DNA of 64,000 nucleotides from Escherichia coli (lineage in GTDB: Bacteria; Pseudomonadota; Gammaproteobacteria; Enterobacterales; Enterobacteriaceae), in the NCBI RefSeq assembly GCF_003334385.1, contig NZ_QOWN01000004.1; one strand, 5' to 3'. Shown piece after piece: positions 34,151 to 34,450 of this stretch. Position 1 is the first letter of the stretch, and each line of letters starts with the position of its first letter. The translations under genes and the position numbers were made by a program. The notes under the pieces were generated by a model. It worked only from the letters and a program-made list of their open reading frames with translations. It was not told where the DNA came from and ran no database searches.

Positions 34151-34226
34151 GCGGGAATAGCTCAGTTGGTAGAGCACGACCTTGCCAAGGTCGGGGTCGC
34201 GAGTTCGAGTCTCGTTTCCCGCTCCA
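34151..34226 (+). tRNA. glyV: tRNA-Gly (GCC), copy 1
   Basis: GCGGGAATAGCTCAGTTGGTAGAGCACGACCTTGCCAAGGTCGGGGTCGCGAGTTCGAGTCTCGTTTCCCGCTCCA, 76 nt. Confidence 0.95.
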
Positions 34227-34262
34227 AAATTTGAAAAGTGCTGCAAAGCACAGACCACCCAA

Positions 34263-34338
34263 GCGGGAATAGCTCAGTTGGTAGAGCACGACCTTGCCAA
34301 GGTCGGGGTCGCGAGTTCGAGTCTCGTTTCCCGCTCCA
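34263..34338 (+). tRNA. glyX: tRNA-Gly (GCC), copy 2
   Basis: Identical 76-nt sequence, separated from copy 1 by a 36-bp spacer. Confidence 0.95.
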
Positions 34339-34374
34339 AAATTTGAAAAGTGCTGCAAAGCACAGACCACCCAA

Positions 34375-34450
34375 GCGGGAATAGCTCAGTTGGTAGAGCA
34401 CGACCTTGCCAAGGTCGGGGTCGCGAGTTCGAGTCTCGTTTCCCGCTCCA
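34375..34450 (+). tRNA. glyY: tRNA-Gly (GCC), copy 3
   Basis: Identical 76-nt sequence, identical 36-bp spacer. Confidence 0.95.

Follow-up and report, generated by a model that had tools for sequence, protein, structure and literature searches.

Sequence comparison indicates that, in the tRNA-Gly(GCC) array of this Escherichia coli strain, the second of two spacers was very probably (we put the probability at about 0.85) made identical to the first by recent recombination within an array of the K-12 type, which would make it a small case of concerted evolution. The array lies in a stretch of 64 kb that was analysed as a whole and is called the window here. The locus is the glyV-glyX-glyY operon of E. 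coli, which is already known and contains no new element; it is a textbook locus, and the finding leaves knowledge of E. coli unchanged. What it offers is a clean and countable case of concerted evolution, in which the ancestral spacer arrangement (haplotypes Sa and Sd, written Sa/Sd and defined below), both deletion products, duplication products and three homogenised end states segregate in one species.

The array is the glyV-glyX-glyY operon

ARAGORN places three tRNA-Gly(GCC) genes on the + strand, at 34151-34226, 34263-34338 and 34375-34450, and the Rfam tRNA model RF00005 gives each of them 69.1 bits against a gathering score of 29. The three genes, glyV, glyX and glyY, are identical in sequence, each being 76 nt long with the CCA encoded, and both spacers (34227-34262 and 34339-34374) consist of the same 36 nt, AAATTTGAAAAGTGCTGCAAAGCACAGACCACCCAA. 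Tandem Repeats Finder reports a repeat at 34151-34452 with a period of 112, 2.7 copies, 100% matches and no indels; the score of 604 is far above chance level, and the array is the sole long tandem repeat in the 64-kb window. A preliminary description of this DNA had reported three identical tRNA-Gly(GCC) genes with identical 36-bp spacers, and this observation is confirmed. It had also counted a perfect 112-bp unit three times; the perfect identity stands, and the count falls to 2.7, since there are three tRNAs and two spacers, with the repeat continuing for 'AA' only 3' of the third tRNA.

The same description had warned against taking the locus for a CRISPR array, and rightly so. Direct repeats at regular intervals, separated by about 36 bp, are reminiscent of one, but the repeats are complete 76-nt tRNA genes, the spacers are identical rather than unique, a leader and cas context are absent, and the neighbours are orn and queG; a CRISPR array was therefore rejected. 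An Rfam match to YrlA (Y RNA-like) at 34176-34315 was also rejected, at 40.2 bits below a gathering score of 69; it arises because the YrlA model contains a tRNA-like module.

A 900-bp query around the array has matches in all 5,426 of 5,426 complete E. coli genomes, where the annotated neighbours in the matching regions are orn, three tRNA-Gly genes, a 17-codon yjeV-like ORF and queG. Gene order from groES to aidB is the same as in K-12 MG1655, and the two sequences are 99.94% identical over 46 kb. It has in common with the K-12 operon (tRNA-Gly3, anticodon GCC; 94.7 min, beside datA) the genes, the promoter region and the first spacer, as well as the flanks, with orn upstream and the attenuator, datA, yjeV and queG downstream. 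The difference is in the spacers: those of K-12 measure 36 nt (Sa) and 35 nt (Sd), whereas in the window spacer 2 equals spacer 1. The features of the region are as follows.

33395..33940, + strand: orn (oligoribonuclease), the upstream neighbour; translation starts MSANENNL; named after RefSeq in matching E. coli regions
about 34040-34059: A/T-rich tract just upstream of the putative promoter
34066..34102, + strand: putative glyV-X-Y promoter, read by eye from the sequence
34066-34071 and 34088-34093, + strand: putative -35 (TTGCAG) and -10 (TATAAT) hexamers, 16 nt apart
34094-34102, + strand: G+C-rich discriminator, GCGCCTCCC
34151..34226, + strand: glyV, tRNA-Gly(GCC) (ARAGORN; RF00005; RefSeq tRNA-Gly in K-12)
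34227..34262, + strand: spacer 1, haplotype Sa; A/U-rich single strand AAAUUUGAAAA, hairpin at 34238-34251, then AGACCACCCAA as the glyX 5' leader
34263..34338, + strand: glyX, tRNA-Gly(GCC) (ARAGORN; RF00005)
34339..34374, + strand: spacer 2, haplotype Sa in the window; hairpin at 34350-34363; the K-12 counterpart is the 35-nt Sd
34375..34450, + strand: glyY, tRNA-Gly(GCC) (ARAGORN; RF00005)
34462..34509, + strand: terminator/attenuator hairpin, with an inner stem at 34473-34500 followed by UUUUUGUUG (U run)
34468-34476: DnaA-box-like ATATCCACA, overlapping the terminator hairpin (pattern search)
34536..34717: start of datA, the DnaA-inactivating locus (pattern search and sequence reading)
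34536-34544, 34698-34706 and 34709-34717: putative datA DnaA boxes TTATCCACA, TTATTCACA and TGTGGATGA, respectively

A scan of 33800-34800 for the sigma-70 consensus called no promoter; it missed the TTGCAG-16-TATAAT arrangement because the -35 hexamer matches at only 3/6 positions. A promoter between orn and glyV, PglyV-X-Y, has been shown experimentally (PMC10950094). The terminator hairpin folds at -14.3 kcal/mol (z -2.5), and TglyV-X-Y has been described as a leaky attenuator that overlaps datA DnaA box 1, with read-through from the tRNA promoter displacing IHF from datA in a cell-cycle-dependent manner (PMC10950094). In the window, the IHF site would lie in the A/T-rich stretch between the datA DnaA boxes.

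Three clustered changes in spacer 2 each match spacer 1

In the 46 kb compared with MG1655 there are 29 differing positions, of which 26 are SNPs scattered outside the array and three are changes within it; the 500 bp on its left side contain no difference. The changes within the array are an extra A at 34346, C instead of T at 34356 and A instead of G at 34359. They fall within 14 bp of spacer 2, and each of them reproduces spacer 1, converting Sd to Sa. One copying event explains such a cluster of changes, all matching the paralogue; three independent mutations do not. The alternative of three separate point changes, or of selection for an identical spacer, with recombination between the repeats playing no part, has some appeal in that the spacer hairpin is under structural selection, so that some pressure exists. 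However, one indel and two substitutions within 14 bp would each have had to copy the paralogue exactly while the flanks stayed identical for hundreds of bases. Moreover, the hairpin is just as intact in haplotypes Sc, Sd and Se, so Sa is not favoured by selection, and unlike spacers are tolerated in 99% of genomes. We give this alternative practically no credence.

Ongoing gene conversion or recent amplification had been proposed from the outset, on the strength of the perfect repeats. That proposal gains support from the Sa/Sd state of K-12, from the three clustered Sd-to-Sa changes and from the rarity of the exact array described below. Mechanistically, the 76-bp tRNA repeats (112 bp with the spacer) would misalign during replication or recombination; one spacer would then be copied over the other without reciprocal change, or an unequal exchange would remove or add a unit. 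The window array would be the state just after spacer 2 of a K-12-type Sa/Sd array was overwritten by spacer 1, in one conversion step or in two steps by way of a 2-copy (Sa) or 4-copy (Sa/Sa/Sd) intermediate. In general, a three-copy Sa/Sa array could come from conversion, from re-duplication of a 2-copy Sa array or from loss of the last unit of an Sa/Sa/Sx array. Selection on tRNA-Gly dosage would hold nearly all genomes at three copies. We infer both this selection and the molecular pathway, be it conversion or two-step exchange, RecA-dependent or slippage.

Identical spacers are rare in E. coli

Five spacer haplotypes are distinguished, as follows.

Sa: the reference, present in the window
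Sb: loop C>T relative to Sa
Sc: loop C>T and one A fewer relative to Sa
Sd: Sc with an A>G that gives a U-G pair
Se: Sd with another A>G

Both MG1655 and ER2796 of K-12 carry Sa (36 nt) followed by Sd (35 nt), NU14 carries Sb/Sc and HS carries Sb/Sd. Of the 5,426 complete E. coli genomes, 16 contain the exact window array including 12-nt flanks, and 58 have Sa in the last spacer position; the four of these 58 that were fetched from outside the Sa/Sa group are all 2-copy arrays. Two further homogenised states are found: Sd/Sd in 22 genomes, and an array with the score and span of Se/Se in nine, one of which was read (94-3024) and is indeed Se/Se, with the new A>G present in both spacers. Identical spacers of any haplotype (Sa/Sa, Sd/Sd or Se/Se) thus amount to about 47 of 5,426 genomes (0.9%), and none of the 53 species-representative Enterobacterales genomes has perfectly identical spacers. 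Among E. coli genomes, perfect spacer identity is a rare and transient exception.

An array with repeats as perfect as these should be checked for polishing artefacts. The strain might in truth have an Sa/Sd array, if polishing had placed short reads of spacer 1 on spacer 2 by mistake or if units had been collapsed in the consensus; the units differ at only three positions in a 112-bp repeat, a classic trap for short-read polishing, and some one- and two-copy arrays could be collapsed repeats. Indeed, 14 of the 58 genomes with Sa last are 'AVS' genomes from one wastewater project, as are five more among the nine scoring as Se/Se, and the Sa/Sa records include a J53 assembly labelled 'hybrid' that disagrees with the J53 parent record, which is Sa/Sd. 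The AVS excess and the J53 discordance raise the suspicion that some of the homogenised or collapsed arrays have a technical origin. Against a technical origin in general, an array of 300 bp is short enough for one long read or one read pair to cover it, and the three homogenised haplotypes come from many laboratories, hosts and years. The new substitution in both Se/Se spacers would not be created by polishing an Sa/Sd template, the ordered mixed spacers of expanded arrays imply that assemblers do resolve the units, and the cross-genus data below show real homogenisation. For the window we regard an artefact as unlikely and a genuine overwriting of spacer 2 as the better reading.

Copy number varies as unequal exchange predicts

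Copy number was assessed with synthetic 1-, 2- and 5-copy queries, at E-value cut-offs that only an unbroken alignment passes. The counts, which follow from BLAST score thresholds, are lower bounds, and expansions in arrays bearing the ERIC-like insertion (see below) are undercounted.

1 copy: 15 genomes
2 copies: 81 genomes
3 copies: about 98% of the 5,426 genomes, by difference
4 copies: 16 genomes
5 copies: 1 genome

The locus had been described as a recombination substrate for copy-number change, with a comparison among E. coli genomes as the check. Copy number is not invariant, although about 98% of genomes have three copies, and the existence of 1-, 2-, 4- and 5-copy arrays with the expected spacer orders supports that description. 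The variants occur in scattered, unrelated backgrounds (among them O157:H7, O104:H4, W/KO11FL, ST95 and laboratory strains), and the carriers of copy-variant and of homogenised arrays differ in size, host and flank identity, with genomes rather than events on a tree being counted. Spacer orders in the expanded arrays are Sa/Sa/Sc, Sa/Sc/Sc, Sa/Sd/Sd and Sa/Sa/Sa/Sd; the pattern of Sa first and Sx last is kept, as unequal exchange predicts for an Sa/Sx array that misaligns by one unit. Sa is retained in about 42 of the 81 two-copy arrays, a figure obtained by subtracting the 16 Sa/Sa genomes from the 58 in which Sa comes last, and the five that were read all have Sa. Others among the two-copy arrays appear to carry a 35-nt spacer, judging from spans of 787 versus 788 bases and from one 98.2% match (strain E94). 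The two types are the two reciprocal deletion products.

Could the window array instead be young, freshly amplified from a single ancestral gene in its own lineage? Fresh amplification would give just such perfect unit identity, and one- and two-copy arrays exist as possible starting points. However, a three-copy array between orn and queG is kept across Enterobacterales, among the matches listed in the species scan below, and in about 98% of E. coli, and in its flanks and first spacer the window agrees with the three-copy allele of K-12. A 2-copy Sa intermediate that expanded again would be one route of the recombination within a K-12-type array proposed above, not a new array. Amplification from a single gene is thus highly improbable, and recombination that overwrote spacer 2 within an old three-copy array remains our reading.

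A duplication spanning the operon has been seen in one nanopore read from a ciprofloxacin-stressed culture (PMC8811037). Several individual records also deserve mention. In SSGw2, from laboratory evolution, the first tRNA copy does not match the exact 76-nt gene, and in OkiPb01707 the middle tRNA copy has a C>T that turns GGGGTCGCG into GGGGTTGCG; individual tRNA copies can diverge before loss or correction. The BL21(DE3) assembly GCF_019754155.1 has a truncated tRNA after an XhoI site, followed by Sa/Sa units, a 16S 3' end and tRNA-Ile/Ala, and Rosetta2-DE3 has an SDR oxidoreductase gene in place of orn upstream of the gly array. These odd junctions in two BL21(DE3)-derived assemblies could reflect engineering, rearrangement or misassembly. 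Plasmid-typed records match the gly array in 9 places with the 900-bp query, in 3 with the spacer query and in 1 with the ERIC spacer.

Spacers track the genome, not the position, across Enterobacterales

A pattern scan with one genome per species, in a sample that does not include E. albertii, E. fergusonii or Klebsiella, found at least 120 loci. Among the matches listed, the order orn-array-queG is kept across Enterobacterales and reaches Aeromonas, where the array has 5-7 copies. Spacers were compared in 53 three-copy genomes from about 25 genera, again among the matches listed. The two spacers of a genome share 0.80 identity on average, whereas spacers at the same position in different genera share 0.53-0.55. 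Same-position and cross-position identities differ by 0.0007, which amounts to no positional signal, and in 96.5% of 5,216 comparisons among these 53 genomes a spacer is more similar to its paralogue than to the orthologue. That spacers are alike within a genome and not by position indicates long-term concerted evolution, and the process proposed for the window explains why spacers across the order follow genome and not position. Concerted evolution is strong in Enterobacteriaceae. It is weak in Edwardsiella, Providencia, Proteus and Photorhabdus, which have two clearly different spacers, at 0.5-0.65 identity, so homogenisation is not universal.

Gene conversion between the seven rrn operons of E. 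coli is reportedly an example of concerted evolution among bacterial multicopy RNA genes. The likeness to the gly array is that paralogues are more alike within a genome than orthologues are across genera, and that new substitutions spread between copies. Unlike rrn, the gly array consists of tandem repeats of only 76-112 bp, and its non-coding spacers are homogenised too. With tandem repeats this short, unequal exchange and slippage alter copy number as well as sequence.

An ERIC-like insertion marks other arrays

In 1,606 of the 5,426 E. coli genomes (about 30%), a 121-bp ERIC-like insertion is present at the 3' end of spacer 1 (for example, L002 3413-3533). The arrays that carry it have Sc or Sd as spacer 2, and the window array does not have it. 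ERIC (IRU) elements are imperfect palindromes of about 125 bp with dispersed intergenic copies. The predicted fold of the insertion is one long, imperfect hairpin (-37 kcal/mol), and other places in E. coli genomes contain full-length copies that are 60-80% identical to it. Against the ERIC primer sequences, used in place of a curated ERIC model, it agrees with ERIC2 at 18-20 of 22 bases and with reverse-complemented ERIC1R at 15-19 of 22. Copies 84-97% identical to that of E. coli occupy the same site of the gly array in Salmonella diarizonae, Citrobacter, Kluyvera, Silvania and Pluralibacter, in either spacer 1 or spacer 2. This distribution suggests one old insertion, which may later have been moved or lost through array rearrangement.

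A covarying hairpin in the spacer

Spacer 1 contains a hairpin of 5 bp with a GCAA loop at 34238-34251; the fold has a dG of -7.2 kcal/mol and a z of -3.3. The spacers of most Enterobacteriaceae share a layout consisting of an A/U-rich 5' segment (AAAUUUGA...), a hairpin of 4-6 bp and ...CACCCAA before the next tRNA. The stem itself varies by genus, being GUGCU/AGCAC, GUAUC/GAUAC, GUGUC/GACAC, GGCC/GGCC or UGGCU/AGCCA. In an alignment of 20 sequences, 90.9% of cells pair and 5/5 pairs have changed on both sides. Mangrovibacter and Cedecea stand one column out of register in this MAFFT alignment, which lowers the pair counts rather than raising them. The observed covariation was reached by 0 of 500 shuffles, and slid registers are 19-49% paired. 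Compensatory changes are even seen between the two spacers of one genome, in RIT691, Pseudocitrobacter and Salmonella diarizonae, and all E. coli haplotypes from Sa to Se keep the hairpin. Some genera, namely Raoultella and Kluyvera, do without it, which makes the hairpin dispensable. An Rfam search of the spacer found no family match at E<=1.

The transcribed spacers of metZWV and leuZ persist as small Hfq-associated RNAs. The gly hairpin is often GNRA-capped and lies at a fixed distance between the A/U-rich site for RNase E and the leader for RNase P. It might be a dedicated processing determinant, for instance a structure that RNase E recognises; alternatively, the spacer, once excised, might survive as an Hfq-associated small RNA. 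We hold this idea, suggested by the conserved pairing and placement, to be doubtful. On a wider version of this idea, if true, the number of copies in the array and the state of its spacers would adjust how much transcription reads through into datA, and tRNA-Gly dosage would in this way be linked to the initiation of replication. Operon read-through regulates datA, so copy-number variants could slightly affect replication control.

Transcription and processing of the array

One strong promoter of the stringent type would drive the three tRNA-Gly(GCC) genes. RNase E would cleave the transcript in the A/U-rich single strand that directly follows each CCA, RNase P would cleave it at the 5' end of each tRNA, and transcription would end at the leaky attenuator, with read-through into datA. 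In vitro, RNase E cuts 1 nt 3' of glyY (PMC4191395), and its cleavage of the precursor is by direct entry and requires both the single-stranded glyX-glyY spacer and the upstream glyX tRNA (PMC4191395, PMC9841416). In this respect glyVXY is like other polycistronic tRNA operons whose transcripts are matured by RNase E or RNase P (argX-hisR-leuT-proM, the metT operon, valV-valW and metZ-metW-metV). It has in common with them an A/U-rich single strand right 3' of the CCA, leaders of short length and a neighbouring tRNA that helps to determine cleavage by RNase E (PMC4191395, PMC9841416). It differs from them in that all three genes encode one tRNA and in that the spacer has a small covarying hairpin. 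A minimum-free-energy fold of the 370-nt precursor, in which the repeats pair with one another, was set aside because tRNAs fold co-transcriptionally.

Other elements in the window

At 55659-55782, in yjfC by the K-12 annotation, the window has 17 substitutions relative to MG1655 in about 125 bp, versus approximately one SNP per 4 kb elsewhere. The cluster looks like a short imported recombination patch. Genes for tRNAs of the tRNA-Phe kind are common sites of island integration, and one tRNA-Phe(GAA) gene, which we take from the K-12 map to be pheU, is found at 4342-4417 on the - strand, about 29.8 kb upstream of glyV. Two known elements complete the picture. A guanidine-II (mini-ykkC) riboswitch is located at 18602-18648 on the + strand, upstream of sugE (50.4 bits against a gathering score of 32), and at 14421-14456 a 9-bp tandem repeat, GGCGGCATG in four copies, encodes the Gly-Gly-Met C-terminal tail of GroEL.
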